Below are positions 11,653 through 63,136 of a stretch of 64,000 nucleotides of DNA, in pieces; within the stretch, counting starts at the first letter, position 1; the number at the start of each line of letters is the position of its first letter. The notes beneath the pieces are model-generated. The model ran no database searches and was not told the origin of the DNA. It saw nothing but the letters and a program-made list of their open reading frames with translations. The stretch is from Candidatus Woesearchaeota archaeon (lineage in GTDB: Archaea; Nanobdellota; Nanobdellia; SCGC-AAA011-G17; PNOQ01), in the NCBI GenBank assembly GCA_964587005.1, contig CAZPJW010000001.1, forward strand, positions 11,986-75,985. Reading direction: 5' to 3'. The translations under genes and the position numbers were made by a program.

Positions 11653-11778
11653 CGCCGGGACTGGGATTTGAACCCAGATGCCCGAAGGCCCGGTTTGCTC
11701 ACAATCTGATTCGAGATTCACCGATAATACAAATCATTGTAAAATCTCCGGTGCAATACCAGATTATGCGATCCCGGC
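11653..11778 (-). tRNA. Intron-containing tRNA (126 nt), class-II-like architecture; candidate tRNA-Ser(CGA); no encoded CCA
   Basis: Reverse-complement gives acceptor GCCGGGA / UCCCGGC (7 perfect bp) and discriminator G. D arm is GCA-UAAUCUGGUAU-UGC (3-bp stem, long loop with GG). T arm is CUGGG-UUCAAAU-CCCAG. A variable-arm hairpin GCC-UUCG-GGC precedes the T stem. The gene carries about 42 nt more than a mature class-II tRNA. A candidate anticodon loop CUCGAAU sits 37-43 nt after position 26. Exon-intron boundaries were not resolved by hand. Confidence 0.6.
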
Positions 11779-12445
11779 ATACGTATTAATTTTCATTCTT
11801 TTTACGGGATGATTAAACCCAATCAACCTTGCAAACTTTATAATATTTTCTTTTTCCGAAATAACCAAAATATAATTTGTATTCCAATTCTCATTTTTCC
11901 TTACATACATATAAAGATTAGAACTCACTCCAAGAGAAGCCAACAAAAACTTTATTTCTTCAATTCCAGATTTATTTACAGATTGTACATCTATCCTATT
12001 CTTTCCAACATATCCCTCACAATCATAAAAGGCTCTAATAAATTCAATCTTACATTCTCTAGACTCAAAAATAAATTTAGGAATTTCCCAGTTCAAAGTA
12101 CCAAACGTAGAAAGCTCTTTCAAATGAGAAGCAACAACTTTAGAATTAATGTTTACACTAAAATGATTGATCTCTTCCCTAATAGTGGGTACCTTACTAT
12201 AAATTTGACTGAATGTATCAACGTAAAGTTGAGCTAGTTCCAGCACATCTGGATAAAAAGAAATTATATATCTCATAGCATTTCTACTTTTCTCCTTACC
12301 AACAATCAAGCTACCATCACCAGCTAAAAAACCACAAAGTCTAGCTAATTTAATATCATCTGCATTTATCTTACTCTTTTCAAGTTCATGAATTTTCTTC
12401 CATCTTGAAATAGCAACATTCCTATTCCTCTCACAAATATCCATA
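11764..12445 (-). CDS. Double-motif LAGLIDADG homing endonuclease family protein (free-standing; stop codon inside the tRNA)
   Basis: Two LAGLIDADG-type motifs: LARLCGFLAGDGSL and FIRAFYDCEGYVG. Start trimmed to MDICERN (ATG at 12445), which sits about 20 nt downstream of a TATATAAAC box. The track ORF extends further 5' but would overlap aglB. The last five codons plus UAA are tRNA nt 1-15 (...TYAGIA*). Confidence 0.7.
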
Positions 12446-12465
12446 ACAATTAACCTCAAATATTG

Positions 12466-12506
12466 TTTATATACACTACGCCCGTACGTGGCAAGCTGGC
12501 AACTTA
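12466..12506 (-). promoter_or_regulatory. TATA box (12466-12474) plus conserved upstream 21-bp motif (12486-12506) of the LAGLIDADG gene
   Basis: Minus strand reads AAGTTGCCAGCTTGCCACGTAC, then 11 nt, then TATATAAAC, then 20 nt, then ATG. The same arrangement and a near-identical motif (AAGTTGTCATCTTGTCACGTAC) occur at 62444-62484 upstream of the second LAGLIDADG gene. Confidence 0.45.
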
Positions 12507-12553
12507 AAAAGAGCTTCAAAACATTTATATACCTTACCGAAATCCTATTCATA

Positions 12554-57291: not shown

Positions 57292-57923
57292 TAATTTGCT
57301 TCGATTTAGATGGAACTTTAGTAAATACAGAAAAATGGATAGTTGACGCAACAATAGCCGCCCTAAAAAAACATAATCTAAAAATAAAAAAAGAAGATTT
57401 ATACAAACAATGGGGGGAGGTCTTACATACTGCATTAAAGAAATCATATCCAAAACTAACAAAAGCAGAGATAGAAGAAATAATTATAGATTTCGAAATA
57501 GAACGAAAAAACACAATACATAAAATAAAACCTTTCAAAAATACAAAAAAAATTCTAAAAGAATTATCAAAAAAGTATACGCTATGTATACTAAGTAACA
57601 ATCCTCACCCAGTTATAACCAAAATATTAAAAATTGCAAAGATAGATAAAAATTTATTTTCAATAATCATAGGGGATGATGAAGTAAAACGACCAAAACC
57701 ATTTCCAGATGAGATATATAAAGCAGAGAGAAAATTCAAAAAAAAGATACAGTTCATGGTTGGAGACTCAAAACAAGATATAAAAACTGCAAAAGCAGCA
57801 AGAGTAAAATCTATAATTATCTTAACCACTCCAAAACCATACTGGAAAAATTTAAAAGAAGCAGACTACAAAATTAAAGATATAAAAGAAATTCCCAAAC
57901 TAATAAAAGAGGTAATCAGATGA
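57279..57923 (+). CDS. HAD-superfamily phosphatase
   Basis: MIICFDLDGTLVNT is HAD motif I (DxDGT). Downstream LSNN and GD motifs. Confidence 0.7.
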   Translation: MDKMIICFDLDGTLVNTEKWIVDATIAALKKHNLKIKKEDLYKQWGEVLHTALKKSYPKLTKAEIEEIIIDFEIERKNTIHKIKPFKNTKKILKELSKKYTLCILSNNPHPVITKILKIAKIDKNLFSIIIGDDEVKRPKPFPDEIYKAERKFKKKIQFMVGDSKQDIKTAKAARVKSIIILTTPKPYWKNLKEADYKIKDIKEIPKLIKEVIR

Positions 57924-59212
57924 GTCAATATTTAGATTTCGTAGATTTAAAATACAAACCAAGAAAAACAGATCTAATTTGCACATTTAGATTTGAACAA
58001 GCCAAGGGTATTTCAAAGAAAGAAGCAATTGGTAGAATAGCAGCAGAATCTTCGAATGGTACTTGGACAACCTTATCCACATTAAGACCCCATATAAGAA
58101 GAATAAGGGCAAGAGCATATAATGTGCAATCAAACTATGTAAAAATAGCATACCCCTTAGAACTATTCGAACTTGGAAACATGCCTCAATTGTTGAGCTC
58201 AATCGCTGGAAATATATTTGGTATGAAAGCAATAACTAATTTAAGACTAGAAGACATCTCATTCCCAAAAAAATATATAAATTCTTTCAGGGGTCCACAA
58301 TATGGAATAAAAGGCATCAGAAAATACATGAAAATAAAAAAGAGGCCAATGACTGCAACCGTTCCAAAGCCAAAAGTGGGCATGACAACAAAAGAACACA
58401 CCAAGGTGGCTTACGACGCATGGTCGGGGGGAATAGACTTTTTGAAAGACGATGAAAACTTAACTTCTCAAAACTTCAACAAATTCGAGAAAAGAGTAAA
58501 AACATGTTCAAGAGCAAGAGACAAAGCAGAAAAAGAAACAGGTGAAAAGAAAGACTATTTCATAAATGTTTCCGCAGAAACAAAAGAAATGCTAAAAAGA
58601 ACAGAACTAGCAAAAATTCATGGATTCAAGTATGTGATGTGTGATATTCTAACAGTTGGCTGGTCTGGACTCCAAACATTAAGAGACGAAACCAAAAAAT
58701 TAAAAATGGCAATTCATGCCCACAGAGCATTCCATGCGGCATTTGATAGAAACCCAAAACACGGAATGTCAATGTTAGCAATAGCAAAATTATCAAGATT
58801 AATTGGCGTAGACAATATCCACATAGGAACCGTTATTGGAAAGTTAGTTGGAACAAAAGACGAAGTTTTACAAATCGAAGATGAGATAACACAACAGGTA
58901 GAAAAACCACTAAAATCAGAAAAGAGCATACTCAACCAGTCTTGGTATGGACTAAAAGATACAATTCCAGTTTCATCAGGAGGTCTACATCCTGGATTAA
59001 TTCCCCAAATAACAAAAATGTTGGGAAATGATATCGTACTCCAATTAGGTGGAGGAATTCATGGGCATCCAAATGGGACTTACGAAGGGTCAAAAGCAAC
59101 TAGACAAGCAATAACTGCTACAATAAATAAAATTTCTTTAAAAAATTACTCACAAAAAAACAAAGAATTAAAATTTGCCCTAAACAAATGGGGATACACA
59201 AAACCAATATAA
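57920..59212 (+). CDS. rbcL: Ribulose-1,5-bisphosphate carboxylase/oxygenase large subunit, archaeal form III-like
   Basis: AAESSNGTWTT. TVPKPKVG (KPK). GGIDFLKDDENLTSQNF carries the carbamylated Lys and the Mg-ligand Asp/Glu. IHAHRAFHAA. GGGIHGHPNG. Length 430 aa. Confidence 0.85.
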   Translation: MSQYLDFVDLKYKPRKTDLICTFRFEQAKGISKKEAIGRIAAESSNGTWTTLSTLRPHIRRIRARAYNVQSNYVKIAYPLELFELGNMPQLLSSIAGNIFGMKAITNLRLEDISFPKKYINSFRGPQYGIKGIRKYMKIKKRPMTATVPKPKVGMTTKEHTKVAYDAWSGGIDFLKDDENLTSQNFNKFEKRVKTCSRARDKAEKETGEKKDYFINVSAETKEMLKRTELAKIHGFKYVMCDILTVGWSGLQTLRDETKKLKMAIHAHRAFHAAFDRNPKHGMSMLAIAKLSRLIGVDNIHIGTVIGKLVGTKDEVLQIEDEITQQVEKPLKSEKSILNQSWYGLKDTIPVSSGGLHPGLIPQITKMLGNDIVLQLGGGIHGHPNGTYEGSKATRQAITATINKISLKNYSQKNKELKFALNKWGYTKPI

Positions 59213-59249: not shown

Positions 59250-60272
59250 ATGAAACTACTAAAATTTGCAGATTATGGAAGATTCTTATTCTTCGCAGCA
59301 CTAATAGTATTTCTGTATGGGACATACAAAATAATCGCCCCATTCATTGCAGCAATAATGGCAGCAATTGTATTATCCATAGTATGTTATCCAGTATATA
59401 CAAAAATAAACAACAAACTAAAGAAAAAAAACATTTCCGCAATAATAGTAGTTGTATTGCTTCTCTTATTAATAACCATCCCCGGAATATTCTTTGCAAA
59501 TACTCTTTTACATGAAGCAATAAATATCTACAACTCGGTAGGAAGTCTGGATCTCCCGGTTTACTCAGAAAAACTAAAAGAAATAACTGGGCTAAACATA
59601 GAATTCGATAGATACCTCTCTGAAACAATAAAAGATTTCTCCAATATCTTTATCCAGTCTAGTACAAATATGATAAGATTTCTCGCAACGGGCTTCATTC
59701 ACATATTCATAGCGTTCTTCACAATGTTCTTCTTGCTAAGGGATGGAAAAAAACTATCAGAATCACTAAAAAAAGGAATCCCTCTTTCTGCCTACCAAAA
59801 AATAAGATTCTTCAAGGGAACAGTAGATAGAATAAATGGTATCTTTCTCGGCTTCTTAGGAATAGGTATAGCAGAATTTCTTGCAGCGTTGATAGGGTTT
59901 ACAATCTTTAAGGTGCCAAATCCCCTATTGTGGGCACTGATGATAGCAATTTTTGCATATATCCCATTACTCGGGCCCGCAGCAATATGGCTCCCCTCAG
60001 CAATATATCTTTTCATACAAGGAGAAACAACCAGTGCAATATTACTAGCTGTATACTTCGGAGCAATACTTAGTTTTTACATGGACAATATACTAAGGGC
60101 CCAATTAATAGGAAAGACTGCCAAAATCCATCCAGCCGTATCAATAATAGGTATTTTTGGAGGACTAAAATTATTCGGAATAGTTGGGCTTGTTGTAGGT
60201 CCATTAATACTTTCTTTATTTGTACTTTTGTATACTCTCTACCTCGAAGAAAATGATAACACTAAAAGCTAA
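59250..60272 (+). CDS. AI-2E family transporter (UPF0118/PerM-like permease)
   Basis: 340 aa, 7-8 TM helices. Family-typical layout with a long central helix pair and the C-terminal LFGIVGLVVGPLIL. Confidence 0.6.
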   Translation: MKLLKFADYGRFLFFAALIVFLYGTYKIIAPFIAAIMAAIVLSIVCYPVYTKINNKLKKKNISAIIVVVLLLLLITIPGIFFANTLLHEAINIYNSVGSLDLPVYSEKLKEITGLNIEFDRYLSETIKDFSNIFIQSSTNMIRFLATGFIHIFIAFFTMFFLLRDGKKLSESLKKGIPLSAYQKIRFFKGTVDRINGIFLGFLGIGIAEFLAALIGFTIFKVPNPLLWALMIAIFAYIPLLGPAAIWLPSAIYLFIQGETTSAILLAVYFGAILSFYMDNILRAQLIGKTAKIHPAVSIIGIFGGLKLFGIVGLVVGPLILSLFVLLYTLYLEENDNTKS

Positions 60273-61725
60273 AGATGTAAAGTTGTCTACGGGTGGCCCC
60301 TTAATTGCAATACTCAACCAAAAGGACGCACAAAGGCTAAATCTACAAGCACTAGATAGGATAAAAATAACTCGTGGTAAAAAAGAAGTAGTCGCAGCAG
60401 TAGACATATCAGAATCAACAGGAATAAAAAAGGGCCAAATAGGTTTATTCAAAGAACTTATAGAAGAACTTGAATTAAAGAAACCCATTCTATTAAAGAT
60501 TTCAACATCTCAAGTACCAGAATCAATTGAAATAATAAAAAAGAAATTAGACAAAAAAGAATTATCAAAGAAAGAAATTTTTATGGTAATTGATAATCTC
60601 ACAAAAAATGAACTAACAGAAATAGAAATAACTTATTTTGTATCATCCTGTTACCTAAATGGGTTAACCGATGATGAAACTAGATATTTAACTCAAGCAA
60701 TAGTAAAATATGGAGATAAATTAGACCTCAATAAAAAAATAATCGCAGATAAACATTGTATTGGGGGAATTCCTAATAACAGAACAACGATGCTTGTCGT
60801 ACCAATTGTAGCGGCCGCAGGAATCACTATGGTAAAAACAAGCTCTAGGTCAATAACTTCCCCTGCAGGAACAGCAGACACAATGGAGTCGCTAGCAAAA
60901 GTAGAATTCACAACCCCGGAAATAAAAAAAATAATAAAAAAAATAAACAGCTGCATAGTATGGGGCGGAGCAATAGATTTAGCAAATGCTGATGAGAAAC
61001 TAATCAAAGTTCGACACCCATTAAGAATAGATCCAAAAGGTTTAATGTTGGCCTCAATTTTGGCAAAAAAAGCTGCCGTAAATTCAACGCACTTATTAAT
61101 TGACATACCGATAGGAAAAACAGCAAAAATCCAAACAAAAAAGCAAGCAAAGTCATTAAAAAAACACTTTGAAAAACTGGGAAAACAACTAAAGATAAAA
61201 ACAAAGGTCATAATCACAAATGGATCCCAACCTATAGGAAATGGAATTGGTCCAAATCTAGAAGCAAGAGATGTTTTATACATATTAAGAAAAGATTCCC
61301 AAGCACCAAAAGACCTAGAAAATAAATCTATTACTATGGCAGATGAAATATTTAAAATCACAAAAACAAAAGCATCCGCTAAAGATATTTTAAATTCTGG
61401 AAAAGCATATCAAAAATTCATAGAAATAATAGGTGCGCAAAGAGGAAACTCAAAAATTAAGCCAACCGACCTAAAATTGGGAAAACTTCAATCCACTATT
61501 AAATCACCTAGGGCAGGAAAAGTAGTAGAAATAGATAACAGAAAAATATCTAAGATAGCAAGACTTGCTGGATCACCTTATGATAAAGAAGCAGGAGTAT
61601 ATTTAAATATAAAATTAAAAGATAAAATTAAAAAAAATCAACCACTAATGACAATCTACTCAAATTCTAAAGCAAAATTAAATTCTGCAAAATCTGAAGT
61701 TAAAGGCGCAATAAAAATAAAATAA
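60253..61725 (+). CDS. deoA: AMP phosphorylase (thymidine-phosphorylase family with N-terminal extension)
   Basis: N-terminal MITLKAKDVKLSTGGPLIAILNQKDAQ. Pyrimidine-nucleoside-phosphorylase core HCIGGIPNNRTTMLVVPIVAAAG...SSRSITSPAGTADTME. Start moved to the internal Met at 60253 to remove overlap with the permease. Confidence 0.75.
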   Translation: MITLKAKDVKLSTGGPLIAILNQKDAQRLNLQALDRIKITRGKKEVVAAVDISESTGIKKGQIGLFKELIEELELKKPILLKISTSQVPESIEIIKKKLDKKELSKKEIFMVIDNLTKNELTEIEITYFVSSCYLNGLTDDETRYLTQAIVKYGDKLDLNKKIIADKHCIGGIPNNRTTMLVVPIVAAAGITMVKTSSRSITSPAGTADTMESLAKVEFTTPEIKKIIKKINSCIVWGGAIDLANADEKLIKVRHPLRIDPKGLMLASILAKKAAVNSTHLLIDIPIGKTAKIQTKKQAKSLKKHFEKLGKQLKIKTKVIITNGSQPIGNGIGPNLEARDVLYILRKDSQAPKDLENKSITMADEIFKITKTKASAKDILNSGKAYQKFIEIIGAQRGNSKIKPTDLKLGKLQSTIKSPRAGKVVEIDNRKISKIARLAGSPYDKEAGVYLNIKLKDKIKKNQPLMTIYSNSKAKLNSAKSEVKGAIKIK

Positions 61726-61726
61726 A

Positions 61727-61854
61727 CGCCGGGACTGGGATTTGAACCCAGATGCCCTTTCGGGCCTGGCTAACCTGTGTATTATTTCAAGGCTTACACT
61801 TCAGAGAGACTAACTCAGCTGAATCAGTGCAATACCAGATTATGCGATCCCGGC
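61727..61854 (-). tRNA. Intron-containing tRNA (128 nt), paralog of 11653..11778; candidate tRNA-Ser(UGA); no encoded CCA
   Basis: First 27 nt (acceptor GCCGGGA, D arm) and last 31 nt (GGGCAU + T arm CUGGG-UUCAAAU-CCCAG + UCCCGGC + G73) are identical to the first tRNA. Variable-arm hairpin GCCC-GAAA-GGGC differs compensatorily from GCC-UUCG-GGC. Candidate anticodon loop CUUGAAA sits at the same offset (37-43 nt after position 26) as CUCGAAU in the paralog. Confidence 0.6.
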
Positions 61855-62422
61855 ATAAGTTTTGTAATACAACGCTACTTTCATCTATATTTAAATTTAA
61901 CTGATAAGAGAAATATTTATTTTTTTGTATAACATTTTTAACTTCCTTGTTAAATCCCCAAATCTCTTCAATCATATGACTCAATCCCAATAATAACTCC
62001 TTACTAGCCATATGGAAATGGAGATTTCCTCGCTTATTTAATCCTCCATCTGTTAAAAACAAACCAAGAAAAAAAGATTTCTTAATGTCCTTATTTGCTT
62101 TAAGTATCAACTCCGGAACCTTTACTATTGCAGCTTTTTTGCCGAATGGAATTCCAATATTATAAACAAGATAATCAAAGATAGGTTTGGAGTAAATACG
62201 AAATTCATAAAGTATTTTTTTATTTGGCCTATGTCTTGAGTTTATCTTACCCTTTGACCCAAATAACTCAGAGTTAAGGTTTGAGAATAAATCTACATAT
62301 TCCCTCCGGGTATTCCAAAAAGCAATTGAATAAGTAGGATATCCAAAACCATTTTTTCTGTTTGATATAGAACCATCTCCAACAAGCATACCTAAAAATA
62401 AAGCCAGTTTATTCAAATCCAT
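61787..62422 (-). CDS. Double-motif LAGLIDADG homing endonuclease family protein; C-terminal 22 codons read through the tRNA
   Basis: Motifs LALFLGMLVGDGSI and FFLGLFLTDGGL. ATG at 62422 is 21 nt downstream of TTTATAAAC. The ORF terminates at a UGA formed by tRNA nt 66-68, in a different frame from the first cassette. Confidence 0.65.
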   Translation of the reverse strand: MDLNKLALFLGMLVGDGSISNRKNGFGYPTYSIAFWNTRREYVDLFSNLNSELFGSKGKINSRHRPNKKILYEFRIYSKPIFDYLVYNIGIPFGKKAAIVKVPELILKANKDIKKSFFLGLFLTDGGLNKRGNLHFHMASKELLLGLSHMIEEIWGFNKEVKNVIQKNKYFSYQLNLNIDESSVVLQNLCRDRIIWYCTDSAELVSLKCKP

Positions 62423-62443
62423 ATAAGAAAAAAACTAGAAATA

Positions 62444-62484
62444 GTTTATAAATTATTTCTCTGTACGTGACAAGATGACAACTT
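62444..62484 (-). promoter_or_regulatory. TATA box (62444-62452) plus conserved upstream 22-bp motif (62463-62484), copy 2
   Basis: Minus strand reads AAGTTGTCATCTTGTCACGTAC, then 10 nt, then TTTATAAAC, then 21 nt, then ATG. Same spacing as at 12466-12506. Contains a direct hexamer repeat TTGTCA-TC-TTGTCA (TTGCCA-GC-TTGCCA in copy 1). Confidence 0.45.
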
Positions 62485-63136
62485 ACAAAACGCCCATAAT
62501 GTGATATGTCAAAGCAGTTCCAATTTTTATAGGATTATCTCCACTTTCAAATTCGGCAACAACACAATAATCATTCCCCTTATAAATTTGATTTGCACTT
62601 CCTTCTTTAAACCAAATAACAAACCTATTCTCATTAGCATTATTACATGTAAGAACAGGTAACTTTAATTCTCTAGTCCGTTCATTATCCTCAATAGAAG
62701 CCAATAAAGTAGGTATATTAAACGGAGCAGGTTCCAACATCTTCTGTCCAACAACCCTTTCAACAGTTAAAAGAGCAACAATCATTTTATTTTCATTTTC
62801 CAAGTCCAAATAAACATCCCTTGTAATATAAATGCTCTTAGCATTCTGAATATCATATCTAACCTTCTCAATAGGAATATCTTCCAACTCTTCAGGACCA
62901 TATTCAAAAGGAATTAAATATTTCTGCCAAAAATACCCAAATAATTTTTCATATTGCAAAATATGTACTTCATTCCCAGTGTGTTTGTCTAAAATAAAAT
63001 CAAAATCTGCAGTGACTCCTCCATAAATATATTCTGAATTTGTTCTGGAGTATATAGTATAGGTAACAGCAAAAGCAACAATAAATACAAGAACTATAAG
63101 GACTGCTGCTATAGATTTTTCTTGTTTTTTATCCAT
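62483..63136 (-). CDS. Small N-terminally anchored secreted protein (paralog pair, member 1)
   Basis: 217 aa. K/E-rich N-terminus then TM (IAAVLIVLVFIVAFAVTYTIY). C-terminus ...ALTYHIMGVL resembles the neighbour's ...GLFYKILGVI. Confidence 0.45.
   Translation of the reverse strand: MDKKQEKSIAAVLIVLVFIVAFAVTYTIYSRTNSEYIYGGVTADFDFILDKHTGNEVHILQYEKLFGYFWQKYLIPFEYGPEELEDIPIEKVRYDIQNAKSIYITRDVYLDLENENKMIVALLTVERVVGQKMLEPAPFNIPTLLASIEDNERTRELKLPVLTCNNANENRFVIWFKEGSANQIYKGNDYCVVAEFESGDNPIKIGTALTYHIMGVL

Follow-up and report, generated by a model that had tools for sequence, protein, structure and literature searches.

How does an open reading frame (ORF) for a LAGLIDADG protein come to end inside a tRNA gene, and to do so twice in one stretch of archaeal DNA? 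The window, by which we mean the whole stretch of 64,000 nucleotides that was analysed, stems from a Woesearchaeota-type (DPANN) archaeon and contains two such arrangements, here called copy 1 and copy 2, of which copy 2 is our main subject. The original prediction had described both as a motif, a TATA box, a LAGLIDADG ORF, an intron-containing tRNA and an oligo-U tract; in copy 2 all of these are present, at the coordinates given below.

Organization of the copy-2 cassette

62463..62484 (-): upstream motif AAGTTGTCATCTTGTCACGTAC (that is, AAGTTGTCATCTTGTCAC followed by GTAC), its last 4 nt being the start of the cassette spacer
62445..62452 (-): TATA box 1 TTTATAAA, putative promoter of the ORF, with 22 nt between its end and the ATG at 62422
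61787..62422 (-): LAGLIDADG endonuclease ORF, from the ORF listing, with stop codon TGA at 61789..61787
62366-62401 (-): LAGLIDADG motif 1 LFLGMLVGDGSI, residues 8-19
62039-62074 (-): LAGLIDADG motif 2 FFLGLFLTDGGL, residues 117-128
61888..61895 (-): candidate TATA box 2 (tRNA promoter) TTTAAATA, inside the ORF codons for SYQLNLN (61889-61909) and starting at -41 from tRNA +1
61790-61855 (-): ORF tail, the last 22 codons CRDRIIWYCTDSAELVSLKCKP, tRNA nt 1-65 including intron sequence, with the stop at nt 66-68
61787..61789 (-): TGA, at once the ORF stop codon and the tRNA anticodon (U34 G35 A36)
61727..61854 (-): pre-tRNA-Ser(UGA), 128 nt, its spliced form called as tRNA-Ser(tga) by ARAGORN
61708..61726 (-): oligo-T tract TTTATTTTATTTTTATT, likely a terminator common to ORF and tRNA, overlapping the 3' end of the convergent deoA

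The ORF of copy 2 encodes 211 aa without interruption (62422..61787, minus strand) and overlaps the tRNA gene (61854..61727) by 68 nt; as had been predicted, it reads 22 codons of tRNA sequence before it stops at the UGA of tRNA nt 66-68. The peptide from this tRNA-encoded end runs ...NLCRDRIIWYCTDSAELVSLK. The ORF is free-standing, with its own TATA box and ATG upstream of tRNA +1, and does not lie inside a self-splicing intron or intein. Since TATA box 1 ends 22 nt before the ATG, the mRNA of copy 2 would be leaderless, and this spacing (21-23 nt from TATA end to ATG) is kept throughout the family. The whole cassette measures about 0.74 kb (window ~62466..61727) and consists of a 14-nt spacer, the TATA box, the ORF and tRNA-Ser(UGA); the similarity of the near-identical cassette at locus L010 to the window ends at the tRNA 3' end or oligo-T tract. 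The motif AAGTTGTCATCTTGTCACGTAC occurs twice in the window, against 0 occurrences expected, once upstream of each cassette.

The tRNA may have a promoter within the ORF. The window, L001, L004, L033 and L037 agree in every nucleotide of the stretch TATCAGTTAA(A/G)TTTAAATA, although the proteins are only 44-69% identical, and we infer that TTTAAATA serves both as ORF codons and as the TATA box of the tRNA. In unlinked tRNA-Ser genes the TATA box mostly starts at -31 to -35, within a range of -24 to -46. Given this range, we dropped the idea that the tRNAs are strictly leaderless in the manner of a host without RNase P, so that a co-transcript would never mature; as a rule it finds no support.

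The tRNA-Ser(UGA) gene and its two introns

61825-61854 (-): exon 1, tRNA positions 1-29
61794..61824 (-): intron 1, 31 nt, at the non-canonical position 29/30, found by hand and by a splice-site scan
61786-61793 (-): exon 2, tRNA positions 30-37
61772..61785 (-): intron 2, 14 nt, at the canonical position 37/38, found by hand, with central helix CUUG/CAGG and bulges AA^A and UU^A
61727-61771 (-): exon 3, tRNA positions 38-73

Where a single tRNA intron had been claimed, we find two (61824..61794 and 61785..61772), and their removal leaves a tRNA-Ser(UGA) with 0 mismatches to the intronless gene of L011; likewise, the spliced tRNA-Ser(CGA) of copy 1 has 0 mismatches to its counterpart in L014. 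Both introns fit the BHB pattern of a 4-bp central helix and two 3-nt bulges on opposite strands, the predicted cut (^) following the second nucleotide of each bulge. In intron 1 the central helix is GCAC/GUGU, the bulges are UG^A and AA^G and the outer helix is UUCAG/CUGAA; the weakness of the flanking helix on the exon side makes this the relaxed HBh' form. Its central helix covaries among relatives (GCAC/GTGT, GCGC/GCGT, CACC/GGTG, CGTC/GACG, CGGC/GCCG). Intron 2 is missing from the orthologous tRNA of L001 and from the intronless genes of L009 and L011.

ARAGORN in default mode and Rfam scans at the gathering threshold both return 0 tRNAs in the whole window, so standard annotation would miss both tRNA genes, and genomes of this kind would appear to lack tRNA-Ser isoacceptors; gene callers, in turn, append tRNA-encoded tails to the proteins. 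With introns enabled, ARAGORN makes wrong calls, Cys(aca) and Lys(ttt), and the structure was solved by hand and with the intronless orthologues. Minimum-free-energy folds of the pre-tRNAs, in which the D-arm is paired with intron 2, were treated as non-native alternatives. We also rejected a single-intron structure with anticodon GCU, probably the basis on which serine had originally been proposed: this GCU sits in intron 1 and varies (GUU in L001).

The sister cassette

11653..12535 (-): copy-1 cassette, from sequence and comparison with empty sites
12522-12535 (-): old tRNA promoter AAGGTATATAAATG; the same promoter fronts the intronless tRNA-Ser(CGA) in L014, L022 and L028
12484-12505 (-): relic motif
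12466-12473 (-): TATA box 1
11764-12444 (-): LAGLIDADG ORF, 226 aa, with stop TAA at tRNA nt 13-15
11653-11778 (-): tRNA-Ser(CGA)
11717-11747 and 11696-11709 (-): tRNA introns, at positions 30/31 and 37/38

The copy-1 ORF enters its tRNA in another frame and ends at the TAA of tRNA nt 13-15, just as predicted. The claim that the exonic parts of the two tRNAs are identical holds for the first 28 and the last 31 nt alone; the anticodon arm and the variable arm differ, and the two genes are different isoacceptors, UGA in copy 2 and CGA in copy 1.

The putative endonuclease and its selection

Both ORFs match Pfam LAGLIDADG_3 (PF14528), with E=2e-12 for copy 2 and E=4e-19 for copy 1. A profile built from 14 homologues of copy 2 finds the endonuclease domains of archaeal V-ATPase subunit inteins (E=2.6e-10) and PI-PkoII (E=3e-7), and the profile of the copy-1 family finds PI-PfuI (1dq3, E=1.6e-20) and I-DmoI (E=8e-7). 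The acidic residues of LVGDG (D16) and LTDGG (D125) in copy 2 are conserved in the 14 homologues, one of which has E at the first position, and in copy 1 GDG and DCEG are invariant among 28 sequences. Judged by its motifs, its profile matches and the signs of mobility described below, the copy-2 protein is probably a single-chain, two-motif LAGLIDADG homing endonuclease.

The dN/dS ratio that the original prediction had proposed as a check amounts to 0.14-0.23 for the copy-2 ORF. The ORF is intact and, by this measure, under purifying selection, and the suspicion that a closer look might turn it into a pseudogene is not borne out. Decayed copies occur elsewhere: L013 retains the C-terminus of the ORF only, and L045 and L107 have truncated ORFs, which is what a selfish gene would be expected to show.

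Empty sites and movement of the cassette

Related genomes contain the empty site for which a search had been suggested. At L009 and L011 the orthologous upstream genes, of 217 aa and 164 aa, are followed after about 40 nt by an intronless tRNA-Ser(UGA), and the ORF and the motif are both absent; the downstream flank is 82% identical between L009 (empty) and L010 (filled). Comparison thus shows the cassette to fill a site which in related genomes holds only a promoter-bearing intronless tRNA-Ser(UGA). Empty sites of copy 1 are found in L014, L022 and L028, where the intronless tRNA-Ser(CGA) stands directly behind the promoter that is kept upstream of the relic in the window. In L024 there is no ORF and a 45-nt intron at 37/38, and the divergent upstream gene of copy 1 is still beside the tRNA in L022 and L024.

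The cassette and its flanks have discordant histories. Between the window and L010, the deoA proteins are 68% identical with a dS of 1.2, whereas the 3' half of the ORF together with the tRNA and both its introns shows 90-100% nucleotide identity. The reverse is seen with L004, where the flanks are 91-96% identical as proteins (dS 0.57-0.77), the ORF is only 69% identical (dS 1.5) and the tRNA introns are different. We thus find presence/absence polymorphism at one site (L009, L011, L014, L022, L028) as well as a history at odds with the flanks, and the comparison shows that ORF and intron-bearing tRNA move between lineages as a single unit. A long-lived association with tRNA-Ser and repeated homing had originally been offered as alternatives; the empty sites, together with the discordant similarities of cassette and flanks, indicate that the association is both old and renewed by movement. 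Copy-2-type ORFs are intact at the same syntenic site in at least four lineages.

The junction and the relics of the resident gene

For our survey, the copy-1 ORF family served to collect 80 metagenomic loci. In at least 62 of them the ORF adjoins a class-II tRNA with G73, and in most of the others such a tRNA is recognisable by eye. The ORF stop falls between -44 and +73 nt from the tRNA start in the 62 loci, in some members inside the tRNA TATA box, and the abutment is kept in all three frames, with tails such as CRDRI.WYCTDS..KCKP, PGSHNLVLHRP and AGIA. The earlier proposal that overlap with the tRNA is retained through frame drift thus agrees with the relatives as far as the abutment goes; the junction, which was held to be the conserved element, is not a conserved coordinate, as the spread of stops in the copy-1 family demonstrates.

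Many of the 80 loci retain a promoter-bearing 5' fragment of the resident tRNA, ending 12-15 nt upstream of the ORF TATA. When 40 loci were compared with the TATA as anchor, a full-length tRNA-Ser 5' part was found in L041, L053, L092, L110, L112 and L116, and the same slot in other loci holds a 5' part shortened to ..GGTAYTGCRC; the 5' relics are significant against shuffles in 14 of the 62 loci. Relics of the 3' part lie immediately behind the intact tRNA in L041, L117, L076, L095, L059, L051, L050 and L043. The two relics of L041, 5' and 3', have acceptor strands that fit one another but do not fit the intact tRNA, and the gap between the relics comprises nt 28-30 only. For the better-preserved copy-1-family relatives, the comparison shows the cassette inside a resident tRNA-Ser, with a promoter-bearing 5' part (nt 1-27) on one side and a 3' part (nt 31-end) on the other. 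The cassettes had been placed next to tRNA-Ser genes; going by the relatives with relics, they lie within the resident gene, at nt ~27-31. The end of the 5' relic (nt ~27), the start of the 3' relic (nt 31) and the intron position (29/30 or 30/31) coincide.

For the window itself, we infer that the upstream motif is a decayed 5' remnant of the resident tRNA-Ser (about nt 16-27, aTCTGGTATTGCAC) followed by 4 nt of cassette spacer, and it is best read as such a remnant and not as a separate promoter motif. Aligned directly with the tRNA, this degenerate relic of ~15 nt is not significant against shuffles; a statistical homology to the tRNA 5' part was accordingly dropped, and the assignment relies on positional homology. 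A 3' relic is absent from both window cassettes, and no well-preserved relic was seen at a copy-2-family locus, the sequence upstream of the distant relative L033 being ambiguous. Since its relic is short and a 3' relic is lacking, the reading of copy 2 as an insertion into a gene draws on positional homology with loci that are nearly all of the copy-1 family. For neutral DNA the relic motif is too well conserved, a hint at some function for which the cassette model makes no provision. Pairing of the motif with the ORF/tRNA junction, which would form a BHB and excise the ORF, was also considered, and no complementarity was found.

Of the 62 ORF-linked tRNAs, about 37 have a BHB intron at 29/30 or 30/31 whose central helix covaries; among unlinked tRNAs the number is 9 of 22. 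Within tRNAs of the same type, the enrichment that goes with ORF linkage is weak (Fisher p = 0.04-0.08) and comes from loci that are not phylogenetically independent. The notion that ORF-linked tRNAs always bear an intron is ruled out by the 14 of 62 that are intronless. The loci L053, L110 and L112 have a relic similar to the cassette tRNA and lack the 29/30 intron.

A proposed mechanism

From these sequence comparisons we consider it probable that copy 2 is a mobile homing-endonuclease cassette, which inserted at nt ~27-31 of a tRNA-Ser gene and brought a replacement tRNA with it. The putative endonuclease would cut ORF-less tRNA-Ser genes near nt 28-31, in the 5' strand of the anticodon stem, and the break would be repaired off a cassette-bearing copy, for which the tRNA-derived flanks would provide the homology. 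Repair would insert the nuclease gene and a working tRNA in place of the broken one. The tRNA of the cassette would stay uncut, the cut position being occupied by the BHB intron (29/30) or, in other members, differing in sequence. It is the positional coincidence of relic ends and intron that points to this cleavage position and to a protective role of the intron. The complete tRNA-Ser(UGA) gene would begin where the endonuclease fold ends, and the ORF would have no need of a stop of its own: it would read into the tRNA up to a chance stop, here the anticodon UGA, and the 22-residue tail would thus be a by-product. The tRNA is probably transcribed from the TATA-like element in the last codons of the ORF, or else it is made as part of a read-through transcript whose 5' end is then processed. 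Should the upstream relic recombine with the tRNA, the nuclease gene would be lost and an intron-bearing tRNA would stay behind.

One could also speculate about a naturally occurring "cleave-and-rescue" gene drive with an essential RNA gene as its target: the cassette would cut intronless tRNA-Ser at nt 28-31 and carry a rescue tRNA made uncuttable by the BHB intron at the cut site. We put this forward tentatively, as a possibility that we would not yet call probable. If it were true, every homing event would add a non-canonical intron and give rise to tRNA half-genes with a promoter, a later deletion of the nuclease gene between repeats would produce an "orphan" intron, and there would be a concrete, testable mechanism for the gain of non-canonical introns and for split archaeal tRNA genes.

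The strongest competitor of the mobile cassette is a domesticated host factor, in which homing has been lost or was never used. Its task could be to assist the tRNA-Ser introns in the manner of a maturase, or to bind the upstream TTGYCA repeats like the transcription factor WhiA, with adjacency serving co-expression. The purifying selection (dN/dS 0.14-0.23) is in keeping with this, as are the intact ORFs that the window, L001, L004, L010 and L037 share at one syntenic position, a weak Pfam match to the WhiA LAGLIDADG-like domain (E=0.006), the conservation of the upstream repeat motif and the introns in most linked tRNAs; a host-beneficial role would also account for the persistence of copy-2-type ORFs at one site in at least four lineages. 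We nevertheless judge it unlikely, since orthologous sites in related genomes have a normal tRNA-Ser and no ORF, the histories of cassette and flanks disagree, relics of the disrupted resident tRNA flank the cassette in relatives, a maturase would find no intron in 14 of the 62 linked tRNAs, some ORFs have decayed, and the catalytic acidic residues are kept.

Alternatively, an integrative element with an integrase (pNOB8/SSV-like) could have targeted the tRNA gene, the rest of the element being lost since and the LAGLIDADG gene staying on as a passenger. Caldiarchaeum has a recombinase element of such an architecture (PMC3293823), in which the insert lies between a 5' fragment of the tRNA and a reconstituted tRNA with an additional intron. 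As to direct repeats of part of the tRNA at the two borders, they are clear in L041, L053, L092, L110, L112 and L116, and the window has only its degenerate relic of ~15 nt. A remnant of this kind is very improbable in our view: at every locus examined the LAGLIDADG ORF (~0.7 kb) is the sole ORF from relic to tRNA, with no integrase, and the same minimal unit recurs at more than 70 loci with a fixed spacing of relic, TATA and ATG, which makes independent decay products unlikely. We rate just as low a giant BHB intron, in which the relic would be the true 5' exon and splicing would remove everything from there through intron 1, the ORF and the second 5' part included, as in LAGLIDADG-containing archaeal rRNA introns. 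The relic does end (tRNA nt ~27-29) where intron 1 starts in the downstream copy, and an intact GCAC upstream would in principle be a pairing partner for GUGUAA^G, the 3' half of the intron-1 BHB; yet the window relic lacks the acceptor and the D-arm and the central helix cannot properly form, the acceptor strand of the L041 relic mismatches the 3' strand of the intact tRNA, and the downstream tRNA is complete by itself. Such an intron could be an ancestral rather than the present state. Chance adjacency, or an artefact of assembly or gene calling, deserves next to no weight: any ORF without a stop runs into whatever lies downstream, but there are two cassettes in one window, the architecture recurs in many independent assemblies at more than 70 loci, and an identical copy-1 ORF is found on at least 12 contigs. 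Collapsed repeats, which the original prediction had named as a danger, are thereby not borne out either.

If the mobile cassette is the right reading, it bears on a long debate, namely how archaeal tRNAs gain non-canonical introns and how split tRNA genes arise, and points to one way in which archaeal tRNA genes may gain odd introns and be fragmented. A minimal unit of nuclease and tRNA is found in dozens of DPANN lineages, with filled, empty and decayed sites and relics all visible. Since the insertion point is also a common non-canonical intron position, the idea that mobile elements create tRNA introns and fragments becomes directly testable.

Comparison with known systems

In a literature search of limited extent we found no description of an association between a LAGLIDADG ORF and a tRNA-Ser cassette. 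I-DmoI, PI-PfuI and PI-PkoII belong to the same fold family, likewise have two motifs per chain and come from archaeal hosts with BHB splicing; they reside inside the intron or intein that they mobilise, whereas the ORF of the window stands alone under a promoter of its own, in fusion with a tRNA gene. Closer in logic is collaborative homing by free-standing endonucleases, as with mobE/seg of the phage T4 type or F-CphI and the cyanophage psbA intron. There, too, the nuclease gene lies outside an intron or intein and adjoins the gene that it presumably targets, the linked allele would be protected by an ORF-less intron where cleavage is presumed to occur, and nuclease and intron would be inherited together. 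Those systems are found in phage and involve GIY-YIG or HNH-type enzymes and group I introns in protein-coding genes, whereas here we have a LAGLIDADG enzyme, a protein-spliced BHB intron and a cellular tRNA target, and a complete replacement gene arrives with the cassette while fragments of the resident gene stay behind.

Split tRNA genes are known from Nanoarchaeum equitans, whose genus is related to the host lineage of the window, and from Caldivirga. The promoter-bearing 5' pieces in L041, L092, L110 and L116 resemble them in that they end near a known split or intron position and are physically separate from the 3' piece. In the window a complete tRNA is present, the relic has no acceptor strand, and on inspection no complementary leaders for trans-splicing were seen between motif and junction. 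Because the cassette supplies an intact tRNA, the pieces in the relatives look like decaying relics.

The sole population-level case that we found in the searched literature comes from one species, Caldiarchaeum subterraneum: at its tRNA-Thr(GGU) locus a mobile element of the recombinase type, with a 1.8-kb insert and a putative site-specific recombinase, integrated by attP/attB logic (Sugahara et al. 2012, PMC3293823). The likeness is considerable: an upstream 5' tRNA fragment is followed by an enzyme gene on the same strand immediately before a reconstituted complete tRNA, and the latter has an extra non-canonical intron, at 24/25 in Caldiarchaeum and at 29/30 in the window cassette (PMC3293823). 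Here, by contrast, the insert is about 0.7 kb, its only gene encodes a LAGLIDADG endonuclease, which argues for break and repair rather than site-specific recombination, and the ORF physically overlaps the tRNA. Each of the two has been put forward as a way for tRNA genes to gain introns and scatter fragments (for Caldiarchaeum, PMC3293823), and the cassette described here recurs across many DPANN lineages, always at tRNA-Ser.

An ORF that ends inside a tRNA-Ser gene

In copy 2 of the cassette, a 22-nt motif and a TATA box precede a LAGLIDADG ORF that runs into a tRNA gene, and deoA follows convergently.

Features of the copy-2 locus and its neighbours
62484..62463, minus strand: 22-nt motif AAGTTGTCATCTTGTCACGTAC, read from the sequence
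62452..62445, minus strand: TATA box TTTATAAA of the ORF, read from the sequence
62422, minus strand: ATG start of the ORF, 22 nt past the TATA box
62422 to TGA 61789..61787, minus strand: ORF of 211 codons, open throughout (ORF listing)
61824..61794, minus strand: tRNA intron 1, 31 nt, between positions 29 and 30, derived by hand
61785..61772, minus strand: tRNA intron 2, 14 nt, canonical 37/38 position, derived by hand
60220-61725, plus strand: AMP phosphorylase-type deoA (Glycos_trans_3N/Glycos_transf_3/PYNP_C domains)
57920-59212, plus strand: form-III-like RuBisCO large subunit

The copy-2 protein has two LAGLIDADG motifs, LFLGMLVGDGSI and FFLGLFLTDGGL, and matches Pfam LAGLIDADG_3 (E=2e-12). 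At ~61.8 kb and ~11.7 kb the window has its two copies of GCCGGGATCGCATAATCTGGTATTGC and of the T-arm/acceptor sequence, and the 22-nt motif is confined to the same two places, copies 1 and 2. The copy-1 protein (ORF 12444..11764, minus strand), also of the LAGLIDADG type, has diverged strongly: a single 62-residue stretch is 35% identical to copy 2. The original prediction, that copy 2 ends in 22 tRNA-encoded codons at a UGA at tRNA nt 66-68 and copy 1, in another frame, at a UAA at nt 13-15, is correct for the tail and both stops, and the observation as a whole is confirmed. Its interpretation, a conserved junction in a long-lived or repeatedly homing association, is supported in part and much extended by comparison with related loci in other genomes and metagenomes (L001-L119).

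As a side observation, the RuBisCO and deoA genes, separated by a gene for a 340-aa AI-2E-transporter-like membrane protein, look by sequence like an archaeal AMP-salvage pair, in keeping with the DPANN/Woesearchaeota origin to which the related loci point.

The tRNA genes and their introns

Neither default ARAGORN nor Rfam finds a tRNA in the 64-kb window, and the intron-enabled ARAGORN calls were rejected as implausible; both bulge-helix-bulge (BHB) introns of the copy-2 tRNA were derived by hand. Since this tRNA has a 7-bp acceptor stem, normal D- and T-arms, a long variable arm and G73, it belongs to class II (serine-type). Intron 1 has a GCAC/GUGU central helix, UG^A and AA^G bulges and a UUCAG/CUGAA outer helix, and intron 2 a CUUG/CAGG central helix with AA^A and UU^A bulges. 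The copy-1 tRNA contains both introns as well, at 30/31 and 37/38. The spliced products, an 83-nt tRNA-Ser(UGA) for copy 2 and an 81-nt tRNA-Ser(CGA) for copy 1, are called tRNA-Ser by ARAGORN and show 0 mismatches to the intronless genes of the related genomes L011 and L014. When all related tRNAs were scanned, many proved to have an intron of this kind at 29/30 or 30/31; its central helix covaries (GCAC/GTGT, GCGC/GCGT, CACC/GGTG, CGTC/GACG, CGGC/GCCG), and its bulges, NN^A plus AA^G or AA^T, do not vary.

The anticodon UGA of the copy-2 tRNA is the stop codon of the copy-2 ORF. The L004 ORF runs into the tRNA shifted by one frame, but the 31-nt intron is missing there, so that the ORF again stops at the anticodon; we regard this as a coincidence of frames. 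The 22-residue tail is probably a by-product of an ORF without its own stop codon.

In minimum-free-energy folds of 61727-61854 and 11653-11778, the D-arm (GCAUAAUCUG) of either copy pairs with part of intron 2 (partners CAGGUUAGC and CAGAUUGUG), even though intron 2 has a different sequence in each copy; this predicted pairing may be fortuitous or represent an alternative fold of the pre-tRNA. Elsewhere, tRNA-Ser genes with long insertions inside the T-loop or D-loop (L007, L032, L052/L064, L098, L115/L118; in L032, GGTTCAAAAAAAACTTTTGAG...GAAAGTCCCAG) escape the tRNA finder used here, and these insertions are presumably further non-canonical introns.

ORF ends overlap the putative tRNA promoter

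In 14 copy-2 homologues (40-88% identity), too, the tail is the translated tRNA 5' part, read in one of two frames as CRDRI.WYCTDS..KCKP or PGSHNLVLHRP; among copy-1 homologues the endings are AGIA, AGVA, AGVPERLMGQSRELV... and similar. The neighbourhood common to L001-L006 and L037-L039 comprises an S-layer protein gene, 164-aa and 217-aa genes, the LAGLIDADG ORF, the tRNA, variable genes and deoA. A metagenome scan using an alignment of copy-1 relatives as query gave 80 loci at 34-56% identity. By automated search, 62 of the 80 have a class-II tRNA with G73 starting -44 to +73 nt from the ORF stop, most of the others being contig ends, tRNAs with T- or D-loop introns, ORFs reading through the whole tRNA, or broken ORFs. 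The anticodon loops (CUCGAA, CUGGAA or CUUGAA) specify Ser CGA, GGA or UGA, and the stops of these copy-1-family metagenomic loci have their mode at +13, on the TAA within the D-arm sequence GCATAA.

One ORF subfamily ends in ...LGL, its TAA stop falling within a TTTATAAA box at -33 that is the tRNA's promoter. At other loci KLKKL codons form CTTAAAAAA at the same distance from the tRNA, and in the copy-2 family SYQLNLN codons form TTTAAATA at -39 to -41, kept at the nucleotide level while the proteins are only 44-69% identical. Given these TATA-like ends and the range of stops, the ORF 3' end overlaps the putative tRNA promoter and the tRNA 5' part, and the exact stop position is free. The proposed retention of the overlap through frame drift extends to the relatives; the stop itself is not fixed, ranging in the copy-1 ORF family from -44 to +73. 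In L063, L101, L103, L104, L113, L116 and L119 the sequence ..TTA GGT TTA TAA A is both ORF end and tRNA TATA box TTTATAAA; in this subfamily the box lies at the canonical ~30 nt before tRNA +1, and stop codon and promoter element share bases.

Empty sites and movement of the cassette

The tRNA 5' exon, scanned against one genome per species, gave 26 loci, all in Woesearchaeota, Pacearchaeota or Nanoarchaeia MAGs, most of them tRNA-Ser without the ORF and with a TATA box starting at -31 to -35. In L009 and L011 the 217-aa and 164-aa genes of the window have orthologues, with an intronless tRNA-Ser(UGA) ~40 nt beyond them; the downstream flanks of the empty L009 and the filled L010, which has both introns, are 82% identical in nucleotides. 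At the copy-1 site, L014, L022 and L028 have AAGGTATATAAATGTT(G/T)TGAAGG... directly 5' of an intronless tRNA-Ser(CGA), and the window still has this promoter, at 12535..12522, upstream of its motif. Because the promoter directly precedes the tRNA in empty sites, the ~0.8 kb that follows it in the window is an insertion. The empty site that the original prediction proposed to seek thus exists at L009, L011, L014, L022 and L028. A divergent STT3-type gene adjoins the tRNA in L022 and L024, as in the window; L024 lacks the ORF, yet has a 45-nt intron at 37/38.

Between the window and L004, flanking proteins are 91-96% identical (dS 0.57-0.77), but the ORF just 69% (dS 1.5). Between about 62360 and the tRNA, identity at the nucleotide level drops from ~90% to 55-78%, and the intron sets differ. 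Against L010, deoA is 68% identical (dS 1.2), whereas the ORF 3' half and the tRNA with both introns show 90-100% nucleotide identity, which breaks off abruptly past the tRNA 3' end. This discordance with the flanks identifies the ORF plus intron-bearing tRNA as the moving unit. The ORF has a dN/dS of 0.14-0.23 and therefore encodes a protein under selection.

The DNA just 3' of the tRNA (window 61726) differs in every relative compared, and this flank of the copy-2-site tRNA appears to be a second insertion hot spot.

DNA just downstream of the copy-2-site tRNA
L001, 2862-3430: PemK toxin pair
L004, 3682-4182: 166-aa gene
L010, 435-3000, and also L037: other genes
Window, 61726: nothing

Relics of a resident tRNA gene

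When 40 non-redundant loci were aligned on the ORF TATA box, a tRNA-Ser 5' part was seen to end 12-15 nt upstream of it. This part is full-length (nt 1-27), with its own TATA box ~32 nt further upstream, in L041-44, L051, L053, L059, L092, L110, L112 and L116, and reduced to ..GGTAYTGCRC in the remaining loci; in 14 of 62 loci, 5' relic and downstream tRNA are more alike than in all or nearly all (99% or more) of 200 shuffles. Several loci have a tRNA 3' part directly after the intact tRNA. L041 reads promoter, 5' relic GCCCGGATGGCACAATGGTACTGCGC, 13-nt spacer, TATA box, ORF, intact 83-nt tRNA-Ser(CGA) (GCCGGTG...CACCGGCG) and 3' relic (nt 31-83, ending TCCGGGCG). Since its relics match each other and not the intact tRNA, with a gap of nt 28-30 only, the cassette of spacer, TATA box, ORF and complete tRNA-Ser lies inside a resident tRNA-Ser at nt ~27-31.

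The window motif, ..CTTGTCAC followed by GTAC.., lies in the 5'-relic slot, 14 nt before the TATA box; it is too decayed for a significant alignment to the tRNA 5' part, and its reading as a relic is thus one of positional homology. In the window, no 3' relic follows either cassette, since the tRNAs adjoin convergent genes directly. Well-preserved relics occur in copy-1 ORF family loci only, and extending the insertion model to copy 2 would be a further step.

The relic motif (62463-62484, 12484-12505) is in the window an internal tandem repeat, TTGYCA-N2-TTGYCA; L047, L097, L108 and L073 have ACTGGACA-ACTGGACA or similar. It is conserved above neutral expectation when loci with synonymous saturation of their ORFs are compared; it may serve as a nuclease half-site, an operator or a homology arm. 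The complete tRNA of L111, downstream of the ORF, is immediately followed by another variable-arm/T-arm/acceptor fragment, and in L075 (2139-2341) a gap of 38 nt separates tandem tRNA-Ser(CGA) and tRNA-Ser(UGA) genes; either arrangement may stem from repeated activity of the cassette at a single site. Upstream of tRNA-Ser(GGA) in L013, the last ~20 codons of a copy-1-type ORF (VGFNHTAKFKRLNEILSSG and stop) directly precede the tRNA, with an unrelated 230-aa gene further upstream; here the endonuclease gene seems to have decayed and its intron-bearing tRNA to have survived.

A model for homing

As far as sequence comparison can establish, the cassette is polymorphic between insertion and empty site, moves horizontally as a unit and encodes a selected two-motif LAGLIDADG protein; its exclusive associate is tRNA-Ser, relics bracket it, and the BHB intron sits where the relics end. 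The enzyme would cut tRNA-Ser genes without the ORF near nt 28-31, and the cut would be repaired from a cassette-bearing copy via the tRNA-derived homologies. The cassette tRNA would be shielded by its intron at that site or, where intronless, by sequence divergence. Later recombination between relic and tRNA could delete the ORF and leave the intron-bearing tRNA, as perhaps in L013, where only the last codons of the ORF are kept. Intron enrichment among ORF-linked tRNAs is marginal (p = 0.04-0.08, for loci that are not independent), L053, L110 and L112 are exceptions, and homing does not account for relic-motif conservation. The model could possibly help explain tRNA intron gain and tRNA gene splitting.

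Comparison with known systems

Profile matches place the cassette proteins in the LAGLIDADG fold family of PI-PfuI, I-DmoI and PI-PkoII; unlike these, they are not encoded within an intron or intein. In its way of working, the cassette seems most like those free-standing phage homing endonucleases that act together with an intron lacking an ORF. Our limited literature search found no report of a LAGLIDADG/tRNA-Ser cassette. The closest published anatomy found, at the Caldiarchaeum tRNA-Thr locus (PMC3293823), combines a 5' fragment, an insert of 1.8 kb that carries a recombinase, and a reconstituted tRNA containing an extra intron; the cassette differs in being without a recombinase. We group the cassette, with its unusual engine, among the mobile elements that regenerate the archaeal tRNA genes into which they integrate.
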